A DNA stretch of 64,000 nucleotides from an uncultured Candidatus Saccharibacteria bacterium (GTDB lineage: Bacteria > Patescibacteriota > Saccharimonadia > Saccharimonadales > JACDBH01). Each line of letters starts with the position of its first letter. Positions within the stretch are counted from its first letter, which is position 1. The stretch spans positions 704,908-768,907 of the forward strand of contig OZ246417.1 in NCBI GenBank assembly GCA_965231105.1. Reading direction: 5' to 3'. The translations under genes and the position numbers were made by a program. The notes under the pieces are model-generated. The model was not told the origin of the DNA. It ran no database searches and was given only the letters and a program-made list of their open reading frames with translations. Shown piece by piece: positions 21,995-29,364 of this stretch.

Positions 21995-22696
21995 CTATTG
22001 AAGTAAGGTTCCTTCGCCTTCACCGCCACTTGTGGGTTTGACGATTCGCACCGTTTCCTTTGATAGGTCTGGTTGCTTAAGTCCAGCCGCTAAGGCAGCT
22101 TCTGCGGCCGTACGGCTTGCCGTCGAGCCATCATAAAGGTCAATGATGAAACTGTCTTGCGCTAGATGATAACTAATAGCATAAGTAGCCGACTGAACGG
22201 GTAGCGTAGCTATGTACTGATTCCGAGGTGAATTGGATGGGAGTTCTGCATCAATATTTACCCCACTCTTTGTATCGGTGATCTGCGTTTTAAGCCGGCT
22301 GTTGGGAAGCTTCTGCAGACGTATCGAAATGGTATTGCCGCTCGAGCCGTACTTTCCAGTAAATACGAGCTCCTCACCTTCTCGTTTTGGCTTATCATCG
22401 AGCTTAAAGCCAATAACCTTATCGGAATTCTTATATTCCTCATAATTTTTTTCACCAAATACGAAAAGATCTTCTATGAAAGAGTCGTAGCGTGCATCAC
22501 CTTCTAATTCGACAAAAAGCTCCTCTCCGCCAATTACTCGGGCTTGGGTTGTGTAGTCTGCGGCGGTACCTTCTTCTGGTGGGGTGTCTATCTTTTCCCT
22601 CCTCCCAAGTATGGCTAGAAAAGTAATAACAATAAGGGCAACAAGCGCAAAGATAATAAGGCGTTTACGATTGCTCTTTGGTTCTGTGGGTTGCAT
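21995..22696 (-). CDS. Bitopic membrane protein, last gene of the T4SS-like operon (VirB8/PrgL-like size and topology; no motif recognised)
   Basis: ATG 22696 is preceded by a perfect AGGAGG. One N-terminal TM (LIIFALVALIVITFLAIL) followed by about 190 aa outside. The ORF-track start at 22771 overlaps the upstream gene. Confidence 0.6.
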   Translation of the reverse strand: MQPTEPKSNRKRLIIFALVALIVITFLAILGRREKIDTPPEEGTAADYTTQARVIGGEELFVELEGDARYDSFIEDLFVFGEKNYEEYKNSDKVIGFKLDDKPKREGEELVFTGKYGSSGNTISIRLQKLPNSRLKTQITDTKSGVNIDAELPSNSPRNQYIATLPVQSATYAISYHLAQDSFIIDLYDGSTASRTAAEAALAAGLKQPDLSKETVRIVKPTSGGEGEGTLLQ

Positions 22697-22707
22697 ATAG
22701 ACCTCCT

Positions 22708-24603
22708 TTAACGAGCTGGTAATGTTGCATAAATCTGAGCAAGGAATGAAATAAAGGCTGGGTCGCGACATTCATCTCGTCCACCGCGTTGCGGTACGCC
22801 GCCTATTGTACAGCCACGGTCGATGTGTAAGTGAGGGCCACCACCCCAACAGACGCTGGTGAAGTTTTGTCTATCGGCAATTTCAGCAATCTTTGTACCG
22901 GCCGCTACGCGGGCTCCTTGGGTCACGGTGACATTCTTAAGGTGTCCGTACCAATAGTAATATCCGTCTTCGGCTCTGAACTGAATAGTGGAGCAGCCAG
23001 CGACGCCCTTGTAGTTCGTATTAATAGTGACGGGAGTACCATCGTAAATTGCGTAGACATCTGCACTATCGGTGCTGAAGAGGTCGTACGCTGGCGTGCC
23101 ATCATGGTGTCCGGTAGTAGTTTGCCCAACGCGTATACCACCGACAGCTTGTGTTTGTGGTGCAAGCGGAAAAGCATAGCCATCTATATTAACCTGGCCA
23201 GGGTTAGCTCCAGGATTGCCTCCGGGACCGGTGGCTATACAGCCGCCAGGAGTGGTTGAGAGACCAGAACCTGTAATAACGAGACCCTGAGTAACCGCAT
23301 CGATTGTGGCATACAGACCATTGATATAGGCCTGTTCATCATTGCCGTCTGAGCCTGGTGCATAGTGACTGATATACGTAGTGAAGTCGTGGGATTCATA
23401 AGGGCTGCCAGCGTTAAGATAATTACGCCGTATAGCCATAAACCAGTCATCACTGCCAGTTGGCTCTCCATCCAGACTTGCCTCCCATGAGGGCCACTGA
23501 TAAACCAATCGTACACGTCCTGATGATGTTGTATAGGTCGTGTGCGGCTGTGACTGGCTGGCTGATCGACCAAAAGCATTGTAGCTTGGTGGAGTAGTTG
23601 CGTGCCACCCGCTCGCGGCAGTGGCAAAGCCATTTTCACGCTGTAAATGACCCACTGCCAGGAATGGATTAACATTGCTTCGTTTTGCGCCACGGATAAA
23701 CGCTTCACCCAACCCAACAAATGGGCTTGAAGACCATCGACTAGAAATATACGTATTTATCGCTTGTGCGGCAGCGGCTTCATCAACGATACCGGGATAT
23801 GTAAGTACATGGGAAGGAATACCGTCTTCGGGCACATCTCCTGCTGCGCCAGGTGTTTCAGAGGCGCTTGGGCGCAAGGCATTGGCAATAACGGTAGCGA
23901 AAGTGTTATTGCCGGTGTTGGTGGGATGAATAGCATCTGAACCGAGTTCGATATTAGCACCTGTTGTGTCGATAACGCTGTAGCCAGAAGATGTTGCGAG
24001 GCTGGTAATGATTTCATTGCGAGCATCCCTTCCTGCCGTGTCGCTGGTGTAGAACAGGTTTACCCAATAGATGCGGGCATTAGGATTAATGCCGCGAATA
24101 TTAGCAAGGAGGGCTGGAATCTGTACGTTTAGATCCTCGGTGCCACTATTCGTGCCCAGAGCAATAACGATGACGCTAGAGTTAGATATGTGATTTTCAT
24201 CATCAAGCACTGCCTGTAATCCTGGTGGATTGCTTCCTGCGGTATCGACGGAAATTGCTCTTCCTGGGTCGGCGTTAATAGCGGTCACCGCATACCCTGC
24301 ACCAATTAACTCGGTAGAGACGTTTGTTCGAGCGCTGTTAGTAATTGAGTCGCCGAGCACGTACACGCTATTAGAATTAAGGCCGGGCACCGTAGCAACA
24401 GCACAGCCACCACTCTCTGGATCATATAAAGGGCTGCCGTAGTATAGCGATTCAAGATCTTCGGCAGATTGCGCAAGCGCAACCGGAGCGTATGCACTGA
24501 TTGTTACGAGTGTAATCGACAGTGCTGCGAGCCACATAGCTTTAGCAGGAAGATAAATGAGCTTTTTCAAGGACTCTTGCAACCGCATGCTACTGGCCTC
24601 CAT
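22708..24603 (-). CDS. Secreted three-module cell-wall hydrolase: SGNH/GDSL esterase + GH73-like glucosaminidase + M23 (LytM) endopeptidase
   Basis: Signal peptide ...APVALAQSA. GDSL block VYVLGDSITNS, GTNSG, DAIHPT. Central LAVGHLQRENGF...YNAFGRSA resembles the GH73 catalytic region. C-terminal YYYWYGHL...GGGPHLHIDRG matches the M23 HxH motif. Alternative start ATG 24588. Confidence 0.75.
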   Translation of the reverse strand: MEASSMRLQESLKKLIYLPAKAMWLAALSITLVTISAYAPVALAQSAEDLESLYYGSPLYDPESGGCAVATVPGLNSNSVYVLGDSITNSARTNVSTELIGAGYAVTAINADPGRAISVDTAGSNPPGLQAVLDDENHISNSSVIVIALGTNSGTEDLNVQIPALLANIRGINPNARIYWVNLFYTSDTAGRDARNEIITSLATSSGYSVIDTTGANIELGSDAIHPTNTGNNTFATVIANALRPSASETPGAAGDVPEDGIPSHVLTYPGIVDEAAAAQAINTYISSRWSSSPFVGLGEAFIRGAKRSNVNPFLAVGHLQRENGFATAASGWHATTPPSYNAFGRSASQSQPHTTYTTSSGRVRLVYQWPSWEASLDGEPTGSDDWFMAIRRNYLNAGSPYESHDFTTYISHYAPGSDGNDEQAYINGLYATIDAVTQGLVITGSGLSTTPGGCIATGPGGNPGANPGQVNIDGYAFPLAPQTQAVGGIRVGQTTTGHHDGTPAYDLFSTDSADVYAIYDGTPVTINTNYKGVAGCSTIQFRAEDGYYYWYGHLKNVTVTQGARVAAGTKIAEIADRQNFTSVCWGGGPHLHIDRGCTIGGVPQRGGRDECRDPAFISFLAQIYATLPAR

Positions 24604-27439
24604 TTACTGTTTGTGGGTTTACAATACCACTTTCAAGCCCGCCATCTGATGTGTAGCCGCTAGTAAAACCTAAACCACCACGGACTCGCCTATCCAGGGT
24701 TTCGCAGTTATATATATCAAGCACTGTCTGAGGGTCCTCGGAGTTATCGTCCACTCGTTCATATACTTTGTTCCAGAAAGCGTCTACATCACCCAGTAGC
24801 TCCATGGTGAGGTCACTTGCATCAATGAATGGTTCCCCATCGTCATTGGTTAGATCGTCGGCATTTGTCATGTCGGCAGCGGGTACACCAACAAACGGAT
24901 CTCGATCAAGACAGTATGCAGGAAAATCGTAGGTATCAATACCGGCAAACGATGCAGCACCGGCAAAACTAGGCTGTGCGCCAATGCGGGGGCTTACTAT
25001 AGAAATACCCGAGCTAAAGAGATTGCCGACCCAAGTCTTAAGTGAGCCGAAGTCGGTGGCCTTAAGTGTAGATAGGCTGAAGAGTGTCTGAGAAGCAAAT
25101 GATTCTGGGTTGGCGGTTGAGAAATATCTTTCAGTGAAAGACATAGTTTGGTTTTGTTCCTGAGCGTAATTGTATGCAATCTCGCTGGCCTTTAACTGAG
25201 ATCCTGGGTTGCTGCGTCCAGCGCCACTGGCACGCATGACACTCTCTGCTACATACGCAGCTCCCTGACCGATCATTGTTAGGATAAGCCCTGCGAGATC
25301 ATTAAAGCCTGTTAAGATTGGTCCTGCGCCCAAGAATGCAACAACCTTCTCGGTCAGCCAAGCCAGTGCCCTTTCAATACCACCGGTAATACCCAACGCA
25401 TCAAAGATAGGATCAATAATAGCCGAGACAAGATCACCGATTCTTCCTGATATCCAGCTTGCGACATCAAAGAAGAAGCCAGTTACCGGATTGTCTCGTG
25501 CGCTGTTGTAATCTTCAACAATTGGATGCAATATGCGACCTACCGAATTCATATACAAGCTCTCTATGCGACTTGCATTTGTCCGGCCCCCAATCTTTGT
25601 GCTATCGCAGTTCCAATAGTATTCACCCTGAGCCGGCACGTGTGAGTCGTTGCAAAAATCTGCTCGTTCCTGAGATGTATTGCCATGGTTGAGCTCGTCA
25701 TTAAAGAAGTAATCATAGGCTTCGCTCTTTTCAAGCCCATTGAGGCCTTCCATAATTACATTATATTCGTCGGCGGTGAGCTGCCCGGTTTTTGTTTGAT
25801 CCCGCATGATCGAATAGGTGGTGTATGCAGCAGCAGCTTGAGTACCTTTAGCAACGGTAGCTAGCTGGCTAAGGCGTCCATTCATTATGTTGGAGTCAAT
25901 GCGCGAAAGCATATCCATTGTATCCACGATATTAATAACAGTAGCGGCGATATTGAGCTTGGTCATGATGCCACGCAAAAGTTCGGCACGTAGTGCTGCA
26001 CTTGCCGCTTCATCAGTGGCGTTTGCTACGTTGTCTACGGCCTCAGAAACAAGGTCATCGACAGCATCGGTGGAACTTCCATCACCCCGTACAATGTTTC
26101 CATCTTCATCGGTCACAGGGCTACCATCAGGATTAAGTTCGGCTCTATCGCCGTCTGTATCGGTTGTTCGGCCAGAAAAGCTACGCTGAGTCTTATTTTC
26201 TGGATTATTAACATCTCCGTTCTTGGGGCAAGATCCTGCTCCAAAAATACACAGCAAGAATTTGCCACTCCTTGTATCTGCTGGAATGAGTTTTCTAAGT
26301 AGCTTTCTTTGAATCTCTATCTTACGCTGCGTTCTATTGTTTCGCCTTGTCTCAAAGAACTTCCATTCAGTTACGCCGGTCATATTTTGAATATCTTTGC
26401 GAATGTGACGTCTCCGCAAGACGCGAAGGAAGTGCGTATTATCATTCACGACTTTCTTAATCGCTCTCCGGGCTTCTTGACTATTTTCAAATATATCGAG
26501 ATTTATAAATTCATCGAGCCTAGTTCCAACTGTATTGAGTGCATCAATACTGCTTTGTCCCCCGGCATTAATTTGGTTGAAGAGGTTACGCGCATTTGCC
26601 TCCCCTCCATATTCCTGGACGGGATCGAACGTAAAGTTAATATCTTGCGACCTCGTTCTTACCGATATGAGTCCGGTGCGTGGATTTCCTACGGCATCCA
26701 CCATGCTTGTAAAGTAAATGCCGTGCTTATTAAAGACATCCTGCTCAAATCGACTTGTGCGAAGGGTGCGGTACCAATCGGTTAATGGGCGATCAGTATC
26801 TACTTTTTGGGCACGGAAGAAGTGGTTATCTTGTCCTGGGTTGGCGGTGCCGTTAAATTCAAACATACGAATTTGAACGTAAGCCTTAACCCATTTATCG
26901 GAACGGTTATCAAAGACGGCATTGAAGCGCGCAAAAGACTTGGCATCGATATTATCCAGTATGTGCTGAAGCTTGAAAATGCCTAAGAAGTTAAAGAGCG
27001 CAAAGCCCGCCAGCACGAGACCAGTAATACCAGCACCTGCTCCAGCAAGAAGTTTTTTATTCTTTTTGAACTTCCCAAGAAATCCACCTTTTTTGGCATT
27101 TCCACTGCCCGTGCCCTGCTTGTTATTGTAGAGGCCCGTATCTTCGCGCTTATCCTCCTTTAAGGCATCACGGAACATAGTGCCAGCATCTTCGGCGTCT
27201 TCTTTTTCTCTCTTGTTTCCTTTTGTTGAGGATCCGCCTTCCCCAGAAACTACAGAGGCTTCACCCCAGCTTTCTCGCGCCTTCTCAAGACCTGTTTTAG
27301 TGCTCGCTGCACTTTCGTTTTCCGCTGTCTCAAGATTCTCGTCCTTTGGTGCCATGCCCCAGCGGCGATTTGCTCGTTCTTGGGCGCTTAGGTTTTTGAC
27401 GTCTCCCTCGTCGTCATATACTCGATTGGGCAATGCCAT
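24590..27439 (-). CDS. 949-aa orphan membrane-anchored protein of the T4SS-like operon
   Basis: Charged, low-complexity N-terminal 130 aa, TM LLAGAGAGITGLVLAGFALFNFLGIF, then about 790 aa with a further hydrophobic patch (VVAFLGAGPILTGF...LILTMIGQGAAYVA). I recognise no domain. Confidence 0.6.
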   Translation of the reverse strand: MALPNRVYDDEGDVKNLSAQERANRRWGMAPKDENLETAENESAASTKTGLEKARESWGEASVVSGEGGSSTKGNKREKEDAEDAGTMFRDALKEDKREDTGLYNNKQGTGSGNAKKGGFLGKFKKNKKLLAGAGAGITGLVLAGFALFNFLGIFKLQHILDNIDAKSFARFNAVFDNRSDKWVKAYVQIRMFEFNGTANPGQDNHFFRAQKVDTDRPLTDWYRTLRTSRFEQDVFNKHGIYFTSMVDAVGNPRTGLISVRTRSQDINFTFDPVQEYGGEANARNLFNQINAGGQSSIDALNTVGTRLDEFINLDIFENSQEARRAIKKVVNDNTHFLRVLRRRHIRKDIQNMTGVTEWKFFETRRNNRTQRKIEIQRKLLRKLIPADTRSGKFLLCIFGAGSCPKNGDVNNPENKTQRSFSGRTTDTDGDRAELNPDGSPVTDEDGNIVRGDGSSTDAVDDLVSEAVDNVANATDEAASAALRAELLRGIMTKLNIAATVINIVDTMDMLSRIDSNIMNGRLSQLATVAKGTQAAAAYTTYSIMRDQTKTGQLTADEYNVIMEGLNGLEKSEAYDYFFNDELNHGNTSQERADFCNDSHVPAQGEYYWNCDSTKIGGRTNASRIESLYMNSVGRILHPIVEDYNSARDNPVTGFFFDVASWISGRIGDLVSAIIDPIFDALGITGGIERALAWLTEKVVAFLGAGPILTGFNDLAGLILTMIGQGAAYVAESVMRASGAGRSNPGSQLKASEIAYNYAQEQNQTMSFTERYFSTANPESFASQTLFSLSTLKATDFGSLKTWVGNLFSSGISIVSPRIGAQPSFAGAASFAGIDTYDFPAYCLDRDPFVGVPAADMTNADDLTNDDGEPFIDASDLTMELLGDVDAFWNKVYERVDDNSEDPQTVLDIYNCETLDRRVRGGLGFTSGYTSDGGLESGIVNPQTVNGGQ

Positions 27440-27447
27440 GTCTTATC

Positions 27448-29364
27448 CTACATTCCCGGGCTTAAACGGTTGTTTAAATCTATTGTACCTTGTGGCTGAT
27501 TAATGTCACCCTGCTCAATAGCCTGAACTTGGCTTGGATTGGTGGTTATAAGGCTTGTTTCAGTTGGGCTAGCAATAATCTGAATATGAACATGGTTTTG
27601 TCCTGCAAAGAAAAGCCCCTGCCCAACCGGGAACTGGCTTAATCGTTTCTTTTCTTCACTTGTTAACTTAAATACGTCACTAAGTACGTCAACTGCAGAG
27701 GTCGATTGTTTAAGGAGTAGCTGCATGGACGCGTTCGCAACAATGGCGCGCCCCATACGAGAACCCATGAAGTCTTCCACGTCCTGCGTGATGGTTGTAA
27801 TGCCTAGGTTGTACTTACGAGCTCGCTTTGCGAGTGAGAACAGGAAGTTTGCTGAGTCTTCATATTTCATAAGCTGCCAGGCTTCATCAACGATAAGGAT
27901 GCGTTTTTTGCGATCAGTCTTCGTCTTATTCCAGATGAAGTTAAGGACAATATACATGGCAACCGGACGGAGCTCATCTTCAAGGTCACGGATATTAAAG
28001 ACAACCATAGGGTTGTTAATATCAATGTTACTCTGCTGGGAGAAGATGCCTGCGAAGGTACCGGTCGTATATTTGCGAAGCCTTTGAGCAAGCTGTGGAC
28101 CTGTGCCGCCCATGTGAAGCAACGTATCATACAGGTCGTTAATAGTTGGAGGTTGTGAAACATGGGTAAGCGGATCGTTTGTAATACCAGCGCGAGCATA
28201 GGTTTCGATAAGGGCTGCGTCAAGATCTGATTCTTCTACTGGAGTTAAGGCAGGCATGCTCATTGCCTGGCCACCCACTAACTGTGTTTGGGCGCCACCC
28301 ATCATGAGTCGCAAGAGACCATGGAGTGTAATGAGATTTGAACGCAGTGCACTATCGGCTTCATCAGTATCAACAACTTTTGGTAAGTCGAACGGATTAA
28401 TACGAGTAGTTGAGTTAAGGCTCAGACGTACATATGCCCCGCCCACGGCATCGGACATACGCTCATATTCATTTTCTGGGTCAATAATGAATATTTCAGT
28501 ACCAAACATAAGGCTACGAAGTGCCTCAAGCTTAACGGAGAAGCTTTTACCTGCACCAGACTTAGCGAATACAACTGAATTGCCGTTTTCCAGTGAGAAC
28601 CGATCAAAGATAACAAGACCAGAGTTGTGCATGTTAATGCCATACAAAATACCGTTATCTTGGCTGAGGTCTGCTGAAGTAAATGGGAATGAAGTAGATA
28701 GTGCGCCCGTGTTCATATTGCGACGTATTTGCAGCTGGTCTACGAATTGCGGAATAGTACTATTAAGCCCCTGCTCTTGTTGGGCGCTTGCTGGTTTTGA
28801 ATAGATAAGCTGTTGGCCGAGCATCGATTCAACTTTGTGACTGACAAATTCCAGCTCATCCATGCTGTTGGCGTAGACGGTAAAGTAAAGGCCAAAACGG
28901 AAGAAGCGCTCTTCACCCACCTGCAATTTGTCGCGCATTTCTTCGGCGTCAAGAATGCTGGCTTGCTTGGCGGGATCACGTACGCGGCCTTTCTCGGCAT
29001 CGATCTGGATACCCGCTTCGAGTTGGGAGACTTTCTTGCGTAAGTTTTCAAGTACCACCTGGCTCTCGACAGGATAGATGAACATAGATAGGTCAATAAC
29101 TTCATCAAGATTCACCATCGTGCTGAGCCAACCAGTAAAGATCTGACGAGGGTAGCCGTATACATAAAAGGTGCGGGCATATCGAGTGCCAATACGGAAG
29201 AAGCCGCTCTGGAATTCAATGGAGCTTGGTGCGATAAAGTCGCGGAGGGCTGTGACGCCTTTCTGGAACGCAAGATTAACTTCTTGCTCTTCCCGAGCAC
29301 GCTGGGCCTGTGCTAACGCGACAGGATCTTGAGTTGGTTGCTGTTTCTTACCAAAGAGCGCCAT
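27448..29364 (-). CDS. VirB4/TrsE-type T4SS ATPase (ATPase-containing part)
   Basis: Walker A VFAKSGAGKSF, Walker B RILIVDEAWQL. The N-terminal FIAPSSIEFQSGFFRIGTRYARTFYVYGYP pattern is typical of Gram-positive VirB4 homologs. Ends with TAG. Confidence 0.85.
   Translation of the reverse strand: MALFGKKQQPTQDPVALAQAQRAREEQEVNLAFQKGVTALRDFIAPSSIEFQSGFFRIGTRYARTFYVYGYPRQIFTGWLSTMVNLDEVIDLSMFIYPVESQVVLENLRKKVSQLEAGIQIDAEKGRVRDPAKQASILDAEEMRDKLQVGEERFFRFGLYFTVYANSMDELEFVSHKVESMLGQQLIYSKPASAQQEQGLNSTIPQFVDQLQIRRNMNTGALSTSFPFTSADLSQDNGILYGINMHNSGLVIFDRFSLENGNSVVFAKSGAGKSFSVKLEALRSLMFGTEIFIIDPENEYERMSDAVGGAYVRLSLNSTTRINPFDLPKVVDTDEADSALRSNLITLHGLLRLMMGGAQTQLVGGQAMSMPALTPVEESDLDAALIETYARAGITNDPLTHVSQPPTINDLYDTLLHMGGTGPQLAQRLRKYTTGTFAGIFSQQSNIDINNPMVVFNIRDLEDELRPVAMYIVLNFIWNKTKTDRKKRILIVDEAWQLMKYEDSANFLFSLAKRARKYNLGITTITQDVEDFMGSRMGRAIVANASMQLLLKQSTSAVDVLSDVFKLTSEEKKRLSQFPVGQGLFFAGQNHVHIQIIASPTETSLITTNPSQVQAIEQGDINQPQGTIDLNNRLSPGM

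Follow-up and report, generated by a model that had tools for sequence, protein, structure and literature searches.

A tail-less member of a large protein family encoded directly after VirB4 in a saccharibacterial type IV secretion locus

Saccharibacteria are tiny bacteria living on other bacteria, and Actinobacteria are their known hosts. We analysed a 64,000-nucleotide (nt) stretch of contig OZ246417.1 from an uncultured Candidatus Saccharibacteria bacterium, referred to below as the window and used for the numbering of positions. We focused on one gene of its type IV secretion system (T4SS) locus, which encodes a membrane-anchored protein of 949 amino acids (aa), P0001, hereafter called the target. 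This protein is the largest unexplained piece of the locus. An initial annotation had described it as an orphan; we find instead that it is the tail-less form of a large, undescribed family.

Saccharibacteria cannot grow as epibionts without their T4SS, yet a 2024 perspective calls the role of this machine 'completely unknown'. In Candidatus Southlakia epibionticum ML1, a recent study and its supplement describe an essential T4SS cluster, SEML1_0006-0019, close to the origin (Wang et al. 2023, PMC10633639). Within this cluster SEML1_0007 (3342 nt) lies directly downstream of the VirB4 gene SEML1_0008, on the same strand. In transposon sequencing (Tn-seq) it was essential at both T1 and T2, insertions falling from 123 in the input DNA to a single one at T2, and its annotation in Tables S1 and S2 consists solely of a C-terminal DD-peptidase domain (DPAM, 951-1105). 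The gene that comes after it, SEML1_0006, is annotated as lysozyme-like twice and as a cysteine proteinase, and elsewhere in the cluster SEML1_0012 is NTF2-like (DPAM match e4ec6D1).

The T4SS genes of the window lie on the minus strand and encode, in order, a 1070-aa polytopic protein, PrgI/VirB3 (expectation value E = 7.5e-9), a TrsD-like protein (E = 7.2e-6), the VirB4 ATPase core (27448..29364; NCBIfam conju_CD1110, E = 1.4e-107), the target (24590..27439), a secreted 631-aa hydrolase (22708..24603; Pfam Peptidase_M23, E = 3e-12) and a 258-aa anchored protein without Pfam match (21995-22771). Genes for VirB2-like pilins are located on the opposite strand. Together these genes make up a Gram-positive-type T4SS. 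The coupling protein PF02534 was not found in the window's own genome, the same control search being positive in 5 of 14 genomes.

The target gene is present once in a one-contig genome of 903,164 bp and forms an uninterrupted open reading frame (ORF) from the ATG at 27439 to a TAG stop at 24592-24590 (949 codons plus stop). Its extent in the initial annotation therefore stands, with the strand, which had been absent, now added. The placement of the gene between a VirB4 ATPase and a wall hydrolase, with one 8-nt and one overlapping junction, also proved correct. The VirB4 stop codon TAG (27450-27448) is followed by 8 nt and the target ATG, with AGGA 6 nt upstream of the latter, and the downstream end overlaps the hydrolase ORF by 14 nt if the first ATG of the hydrolase (24603) is used.

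SEML1_0007 is like the target in its position after VirB4, in its ~950 unannotated residues and in the lysozyme/peptidase gene that comes next. It is unlike the target in its C-terminal DD-peptidase domain, the target ending after the shared core; the likeness is one of annotation rather than of aligned sequences. The 258-aa anchored protein of the window sits one gene past the hydrolase, as does SEML1_0005, a PEGA/Ig-like exported protein, in Southlakia.

The gene order is also collinear with that in the tra region of the plasmid pSK41, in which trsD, trsE (VirB4), trsF (a 426-aa membrane protein) and trsG (glucosaminidase plus CHAP) follow one another, TrsD being a separate gene. TrsF fills the same slot between VirB4 and the hydrolase, but is less than half as long as the target and has no detectable sequence relationship to it, the two having been compared by sequence and not by fold. 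When the core profile was aligned to pSK41 TrsF with hhalign, the probability was 0.6%, and homology of the target to TrsF/TraF was rejected. Relationship to a 663-aa post-VirB4 protein of Enterococcus that ends in NlpC/P60 was rejected likewise (hhalign, 0.2%).

The core family and its pairing with VirB4

A word-indexed search returned 24 proteins including the target, the 23 homologues being 30-48% identical to it over 82-99% of the query. The few homologues with a source name belong to Saccharibacteria or Saccharimonadales, and several carry a C-terminal Pfam peptidase domain. A profile search of 1.84 billion representatives found 1944 proteins at E<=1e-3, of which 1138 reach E<=1e-10 and 328 reach E<=1e-30; the weak end of this list is inflated because the profile held some hydrolase-tail columns. 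The target itself matches the family profile with 1123.5 bits over profile positions 3-902. Given these homologues and the gene reported as essential at the same position in Southlakia, the description of the target as an orphan does not hold. Full-text literature searches revealed no paper treating the core of SEML1_0007-like proteins. The 'T4SS gene repertoire' section of a hidden Markov model (HMM) survey lists no family for the core (Quinonero-Coronel et al. 2025), and the available parts of a 2025 T4SS review and of the 2024 perspective do not discuss the target protein.

Related loci (n = 21) were found through an alignment of the core family, a single-protein query having returned none. 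The order VirB6-like, PrgI, TrsD, VirB4, core was observed in 20 of the 21; the remaining locus starts inside the gene (L030) and has no upstream DNA. Because this sample was chosen by the core itself, we repeated the test with VirB4 as the anchor. VirB4 was found in 58 of 61 Saccharimonadia genomes, and the 4.5 kb downstream of 53 primary VirB4 matches were searched. In 49 of the 53 regions, a frame that stays open for at least 400 aa begins no more than 520 nt past the end of VirB4. The core-only profile matched 30 regions directly, mostly weakly (22-100 bits), 29 of the matches being in the adjacent frame. A rebuilt profile recovered 14 more adjacent frames with E values of 1e-11 to 1e-33 before inclusion, and one further frame joined in the third profile round, giving matches in 45 of the 49 adjacent frames. 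One extra region contained a core match 3.6 kb downstream of VirB4. In total, a family member lies within 4.5 kb downstream of virB4 in 46 of the 53 regions; the seven unmatched ones include one with only 217 nt of DNA and one without any open frame of at least 150 aa. Therefore, the gene is missing from few, if any, otherwise syntenic loci.

The absence from syntenic loci that would have spoken against the initial annotation was thus not seen, and the co-occurrence with VirB4 that it proposed to check is found in the 46 regions. Both samples support its suggestion that the target is a component specific to this T4SS, and we regard the target as a true, system-specific T4SS component. In a phylum-wide search with the core profile, 11 of 401 genomes matched, including the window's own, and all were of the same order or class. 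These were short-fragment matches, and the search plainly missed members; with such poor sensitivity, absence outside the class does not follow.

Conservation within the core is uneven. In an alignment of 150 cluster representatives, G355, C397, C404, G726, G739 and S780 are invariant and 33 more columns are conserved at 90% or above. All six signature residues of the family (G704, G726, E732, R736, G739 and S780) are present in the target. In the class-wide alignment (46 rows), the only columns conserved at 80% or above are G726, G739 and S780, and divergent class members were detected mainly via profile positions ~594-761, i.e. the Gly-rich segment and the part following it. On account of these two observations we consider the Gly-rich patch to be the family signature. 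Class-wide conservation appears to be confined to this one short segment. In the same relatives the core is 25-35% identical to the window's copy, as against 67-87% for VirB4 and 47-76% for TrsD, so that by these identities the core seems to be by far the fastest-evolving of the locus parts compared.

Several observations on VirB4 and its surroundings were made on the way. One locus (L075; G131:C1:135033-139583) has a 1092-aa open frame directly after VirB4 that the core profile fails to match, also in its iterated form; this frame could encode a family member that has diverged further still, or a replacement. Some Saccharimonadia contain extra divergent VirB4-like copies (G439:C1:736822-738549 and 389382-391130; G063:C1:630646-632325), which score ~460-470 bits compared with >1000 for the main copy, some of them with in-frame TGA or TAA stops. 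In one family, f2, three genomes (G010, G038 and G203) have a single in-frame TAA within VirB4, which could be due to decay, assembly error or another cause. In one of the three (L100) the 4.5 kb after VirB4 contain no open frame of at least 150 aa. The closest VirB4 in the plasmid collection is that of an Embleya sp. plasmid (L035; NZ_CP108778.1, 8104-18420), with 37.8% identity over 89% (E = 5e-116); the next among 40 rows evenly sampled from the plasmid ranking has 28.0% (Enterococcus). The Embleya cluster is actinobacterial and encodes a TrbL_4-like protein, PrgI, VirB4, a coupling protein, a relaxation protein and NlpC/P60.

C-terminal tails and the downstream hydrolase

We defined the tail as the sequence beyond core position 930 and required a length of at least 40 aa. 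Tails are present in 111 of the 150 representatives (110 of these 111 have at least 80 aa), and the other 39 proteins end within 40 residues. The target ends 19 residues past position 930 and thus corresponds to a tail-less, 'naked' core. A Pfam scan of all 111 tails detected enzyme domains in 69 of them, with two domains in 6. The domains belong to 12 enzyme families: VanY (30 proteins), Peptidase_M23 (16), GDSL/SGNH (8), Exo_endo_phos (4), M14 (4), M74 (3), NlpC/P60 (3), CHAP (2), GDPD (2), and SLT_2, Amidase_3 and C39_2 (1 each). These are predicted to be mostly wall peptidases. Pfam gave no match for 42 of the 111 tails, which include most of one homologous tail cluster of 25 members. The tail of P0014, the single example inspected from this cluster, contains an H..G.A.D and HWH pattern, which we take to be typical of zinc DD-peptidases.

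The distribution of tails was mapped on a FastTree phylogeny of the core alone (748 columns); as this is a quick tree, and tail clusters were formed by single linkage, the numbers are rough. At least 59 changes of tail class are needed over the 149 labelled tips, compared with a mean of 79 and a minimum of 70 when the labels are shuffled; for tail presence or absence the count is at least 27, against a shuffled mean of 34.7 and minimum of 28. Since both counts are only somewhat under the shuffled values, tails follow the phylogeny weakly. The four nearest relatives of the target (P0002, P0031, P0003 and P0004) all belong to the NlpC/P60 tail cluster, three of them with a Pfam match to NlpC/P60; the target is therefore a tail-less variant inside a tailed clade. 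From its position, its length and its correspondence to the commonest architecture, a core followed by VanY (30 of 111 tails), we infer that SEML1_0007 is the Southlakia counterpart of the target.

With a tail fused to the C-terminus in 111 of 150 relatives, the link between the core and wall hydrolases appears to be closer than adjacency. The product of the downstream gene carries its own signal peptide and consists of an SGNH-type domain, a middle region and the M23 domain. Its residues 79-333 align with the part of P0118 containing a fused GDSL domain (30% identity, E = 4e-21) and with the corresponding part of P0041, a protein that has an M23 domain as well (27% identity, E = 6e-12). Having the same kind of SGNH domain, the 631-aa hydrolase is probably a separately encoded equivalent of the fused tails of relatives. 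An alternative start of this gene, a second ATG at 24588 (region 24586-24603), lies 8 nt after GGAGG and 1 nt past the target stop; this ATG (product MRLQESL...) looks a better start than the one at 24603.

What follows the core was scanned in 17 related loci in which the core ORF is complete. In 13 of them one or more of the following genes encode another wall hydrolase made of several domains, with Phage_lysozyme2 or SLT together with M23, C39_2, CHAP, Amidase_2, Amidase_5, NlpC/P60, Beta-lactamase2 or GDSL; for the genes after the core in the other 4 loci Pfam gave nothing. Small ORFs follow the core only in L016 and L018, and an immunity-like small gene is not regularly found downstream of the core in the 17 loci.

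VirB1-type hydrolases of Gram-positive (MPF-FATA) systems, such as TrsG and presumably PrgK, TraG of pIP501 and CwlT, are like the core family in being T4SS-encoded envelope proteins that are located near virB4 and bring glycosidase or peptidase domains to the wall. They consist mostly of catalytic domains, whereas members of the core family have in addition the core itself, ~800 aa long and of unmatched fold, and the target has no catalytic domain at all. Indeed, no glycosidase or peptidase domain that would make the target a VirB1-like hydrolase was detected with Pfam or NCBIfam, and no hydrolase fold was listed among its matches.

Regions of the protein and its predicted fold

The target gave no match in Pfam or NCBIfam (E<=0.1) or in PHROGs, in keeping with the absence of a recognised family motif noted initially. 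A Pfam scan found neither a VirD4-type P-loop NTPase domain (PF02534) nor a TrbL/VirB6 match, and the protein lacks VirB6/TrbL polytopic character, with one window of transmembrane (TM) grade as against the five or more expected. The charged low-complexity N-terminus, the one clear TM segment and the Gly/Ala-rich hydrophobic patch that the initial annotation had picked out are all present, and could be placed in a division of the protein into six regions, all read from the minus strand.

Residues 1-129 (27053..27439) form a charged, disordered tail, predicted to be cytoplasmic. The composition of residues 1-128 is dominated by G (16), K (16), E (15), A (13), N (10) and D (9), and in the AlphaFold2 model of the whole protein the predicted local distance difference test (pLDDT) score is below 50 over residues 1-17, 24-79 and 92-119. 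A VYD motif is found at 7-9, and YD occurs in the first 25 residues of 84 of the 141 family members that start with M. The conservation of YD so close to the N-terminus hints at a docking site on the cytoplasmic side. A complex prediction for residues 1-45 with VirB4 and the TrsD-like protein (76-313) gave a score of 0.00, which is no answer and counts as evidence neither way.

The single strong TM helix, corresponding to the segment quoted initially, spans residues 130-155 (26975..27052). The Kyte-Doolittle value over residues 137-155 is 1.97, in the sole window above 1.6 in the protein. A Lys-rich stretch immediately precedes the helix, which fits a predicted N-in topology. The target has exactly six Cys, all after the TM helix and arranged in three near pairs, C397/C404, C596/C611 and C843/C912; the first pair is invariant and the other four residues are conserved at 90% or above among the 150 sequences. 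Because of the three post-TM Cys pairs and the Lys-rich stretch, the protein probably has an N-in/C-out topology with an ectodomain braced by three disulfides.

The membrane-proximal conserved region (156-404; 26228..26974) contains a DWYRT motif (221-225), many conserved Arg and the Cys397/Cys404 pair. Its invariant or >=90% columns include R171, R179, Y187, R191, W222, Y223, R227, F231, E232, G240, R324, R343, R347, G355, W359, C397 and C404. It is followed by a variable acidic Asp/Gly-rich linker (405-454; 26078..26227), mostly of low model confidence (pLDDT below 50 at 421-435 and 451-456), the length and sequence of which vary across the alignment. Stretches such as TDTDGD, DEDGN and RGDGSS give it a high content of Asp, Gly and Thr and recall calcium-binding loops; among homologues its length differs widely.

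Next come a helical region with the Cys596/Cys611 pair (455-687; 25379..26077; DSSP helices at 455-565 and 620-681) and the family signature (688-740; 25220..25378), a Gly-rich amphipathic helix-loop-helix with FLGAGP, G704, G726, E732, R736 and G739. The Gly/Ala-rich patch of the initial annotation corresponds to residues 700-730 of this signature. It contains charged residues, and its Kyte-Doolittle peaks (1.2-1.55) remain under the TM threshold; pLDDT is 72-80 at 701-720 and 96-97 at 721-750. The C-terminal small-helix subdomain (741-935; 24635..25219) holds the Cys843/Cys912 pair and ends in a ...YNC..LD..VRG.LG..GY motif. The enzyme tails of relatives begin directly after it. Model confidence is high in its second half (pLDDT 88-97 over 821-930, except 80 at 891-900) and 61-90 over 741-820.

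The whole-protein model, built from a 75-row alignment, has a mean pLDDT of 71.8 and a predicted template modelling (pTM) score of 0.75. A helix at 121-168 holds the TM segment and continues as a helix at 170-193. DSSP assigns only three strands, of 5-8 residues each, between 242 and 316, the remainder being helical. Residues 610-949 were also modelled on their own, with a pLDDT of 78.1. From the pTM score, the ectodomain fold is judged compact.

Fold searches revealed no relative. With the whole model, Foldseek found nothing at E<=1e-3 in either PDB (best 0.44) or BFVD (best 0.035), and the best VIA-wide match had Z = 5.5, generic helices aligning mainly over 366-709. The model of residues 610-949 gave a best E of 2.6 in PDB and a best VIA-wide Z of 4.0, with no match at Z>=5. 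For residues 156-365 the fold comparison used the whole model, and VIA barely probed them. The best ESM Atlas score, 0.81, lies below the 0.9 lead level, and sequence searches of PDB gave best E values of 0.47 for the single sequence and 1.6 for the core profile. The check by AlphaFold and Foldseek that the initial annotation had proposed thus yielded no match to a well-characterised unrelated family. As modelled, the ectodomain fold appears to be without a solved relative in the libraries searched.

Possible roles of the core

We give about even chances to a reading in which the target is a T4SS-anchored scaffold that carries or positions a wall-lytic module. The protein would be a lineage-specific bitopic subunit of a chromosomal, non-conjugative Saccharimonadia T4SS. 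Its charged N-terminal tail would stay in the cytoplasm and its TM helix would anchor it beside the VirB3/VirB4/VirB6 base, with the largely helical ectodomain of ~790 residues, probably braced by three disulfides, serving as a scaffold that carries or positions the envelope-cutting enzymes of the machine. The majority of relatives would have such enzymes fused to the C-terminus of the core; here, the enzyme would be made by the next, translationally coupled gene as a separate secreted partner. Local wall cutting would let the machine and its pilus through the envelope, the wall being opened only where the channel or pilus must pass. This reading draws on the operon position, the synteny with VirB4, the Rosetta-stone fusions, the shared SGNH domain, the second hydrolase, the collinearity with pSK41, the Cys pairs and the essentiality of SEML1_0007. 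Family membership, synteny, the fusion pattern, the fast divergence and the lack of a solved fold match in the libraries searched are observed; what we infer are the topology, the disulfides, the identity of the wall that is cut, and a physical contact of the protein with the T4SS base and with the hydrolase.

Several points weigh against such a scaffold. Contact of the core with VirB4, VirB6 or the hydrolase is presumed. The hydrolase has its own signal peptide and therefore needs no carrier for export. With 39 of 150 cores tail-less, the core must have some function of its own. Certain tails (Exo_endo_phos, GDPD, GDSL) belong to enzymes that do not act on peptidoglycan, and remodelling of the cell's own wall is alone insufficient to account for them. 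The core has also changed much more quickly than the proteins encoded beside it, which is unusual for an internal scaffold, and no known T4SS scaffold fold was found by Foldseek in PDB or by VIA-wide with either the whole or the 610-949 model.

The breadth of the tail repertoire (12 families, with the non-peptidoglycan enzymes Exo_endo_phos in 4, GDPD in 2 and GDSL in 8 proteins) and the frequent tail swapping (at least 59 class changes on the 149-tip core tree) would also suit a host-directed breaching device, the main alternative though a doubtful one, in which the ectodomain faces the host and the enzymes attack the host's wall, its teichoic acids or its lipids where the two cells touch. 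The Gly-rich amphipathic hairpin would then engage the host envelope, and the device would operate much as phage tape-measure or ejection proteins do, or the T4SS effectors that kill bacteria. Such effectors (X-Tfe type), like other polymorphic effectors, combine a conserved N-terminal part with exchangeable C-terminal hydrolase, lipase or phosphodiesterase domains, and the core family would resemble them in this; it is unlike them in its membrane anchor, its implied Sec-type export and the lack of a regular immunity gene. Among phage proteins, tape-measure and ejection types that end in an M23 or transglycosylase domain (e.g. T5 Pb2) are long and helical and contain hydrophobic Gly-rich segments. 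The likeness of the core to them is by description, with no significant match (BFVD best E = 0.035; VIA Z<=4.0 for 610-949); the weak, non-significant BFVD rows are nevertheless enriched for tape-measure and internal virion proteins, which provides a lead only. Host breaching would also accord with the very fast divergence of the core beside a conserved VirB4, with the 39 tail-less members and with a T4SS that is essential for epibiotic growth in a role that the 2024 perspective calls 'completely unknown'. It is less easily reconciled with a TM anchor and cytoplasmic tail, which would tether the protein to the producer cell, and with fused tails and a neighbour's signal peptide, which would imply Sec export rather than the T4SS channel. 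Nor is there a regular immunity-like small gene, the next gene being another hydrolase in 13 of 17 loci; the hairpin carries the conserved charged residues E732 and R736 and stays below a Kyte-Doolittle value of 1.6, and no fold match to a pore former or tape-measure protein was obtained in PDB, VIA-wide or BFVD. A narrower proposal, which we consider unlikely, is that the core is a host-contacting penetration part whose hairpin 688-740 engages or inserts into the host envelope once lytic 'warheads' have breached the host wall, as a cellular analogue of tape-measure and ejection proteins. If true, the core would open a conduit through which Saccharibacteria draw on host material.

The topology of the target, with a cytoplasmic tail, one TM helix and a large ectodomain, resembles that of VirB8-like subunits such as TraM of pIP501 and PrgL of pCF10, which are likewise N-in with one TM helix and an extracytoplasmic domain. 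The core might accordingly be a structural subunit that stands in for VirB8/VirB10-type bitopic channel or arch subunits as a stalk across the epibiont wall, the tails being opportunistic passengers. A docking site suggested by the YD motif, the 39 of 150 members that work without a tail and the near-constant place next to VirB4 agree with this proposal. We nonetheless think it improbable: VirB8-like subunits have an NTF2-like fold, whereas the target model is almost all helical, nearly without beta-sheet, and no NTF2-like match was listed, with residues 156-365 barely probed. In addition, the Southlakia cluster already has the NTF2-like SEML1_0012, and class-wide conservation in one short segment would be odd for a ring-forming channel subunit. 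Finally, the large, fast-evolving, Cys-braced ectodomain could belong to a surface adhesin that binds the host cell and is linked to the T4SS only genetically, and the 2025 survey reports no PrgB-type adhesins in its Patescibacteria dataset (Quinonero-Coronel et al. 2025). This appears very improbable to us, as no adhesin, lectin or Ig-like domain was found with Pfam, Foldseek in PDB or VIA-wide, the fold is helical and judged compact, and the repeated enzyme fusion points to catalysis-related work. The scaffold, breaching, stalk and adhesin readings overlap.

The present analysis contributes the extent of the family, its near-constant pairing with VirB4, the count of tails, the class-wide signature, the recognition of the tail-less form and the lack of a solved structural relative. 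In the tail-less copy, what the core does can be told apart from what the enzymes do, and this copy is a natural construct for structural work on an unmatched fold. As the site at which envelope-cutting enzymes are attached and swapped, the core offers a handle on the way in which the machine of an ultrasmall epibiont passes two cell walls, and on whether its enzyme repertoire tracks host wall chemistry.

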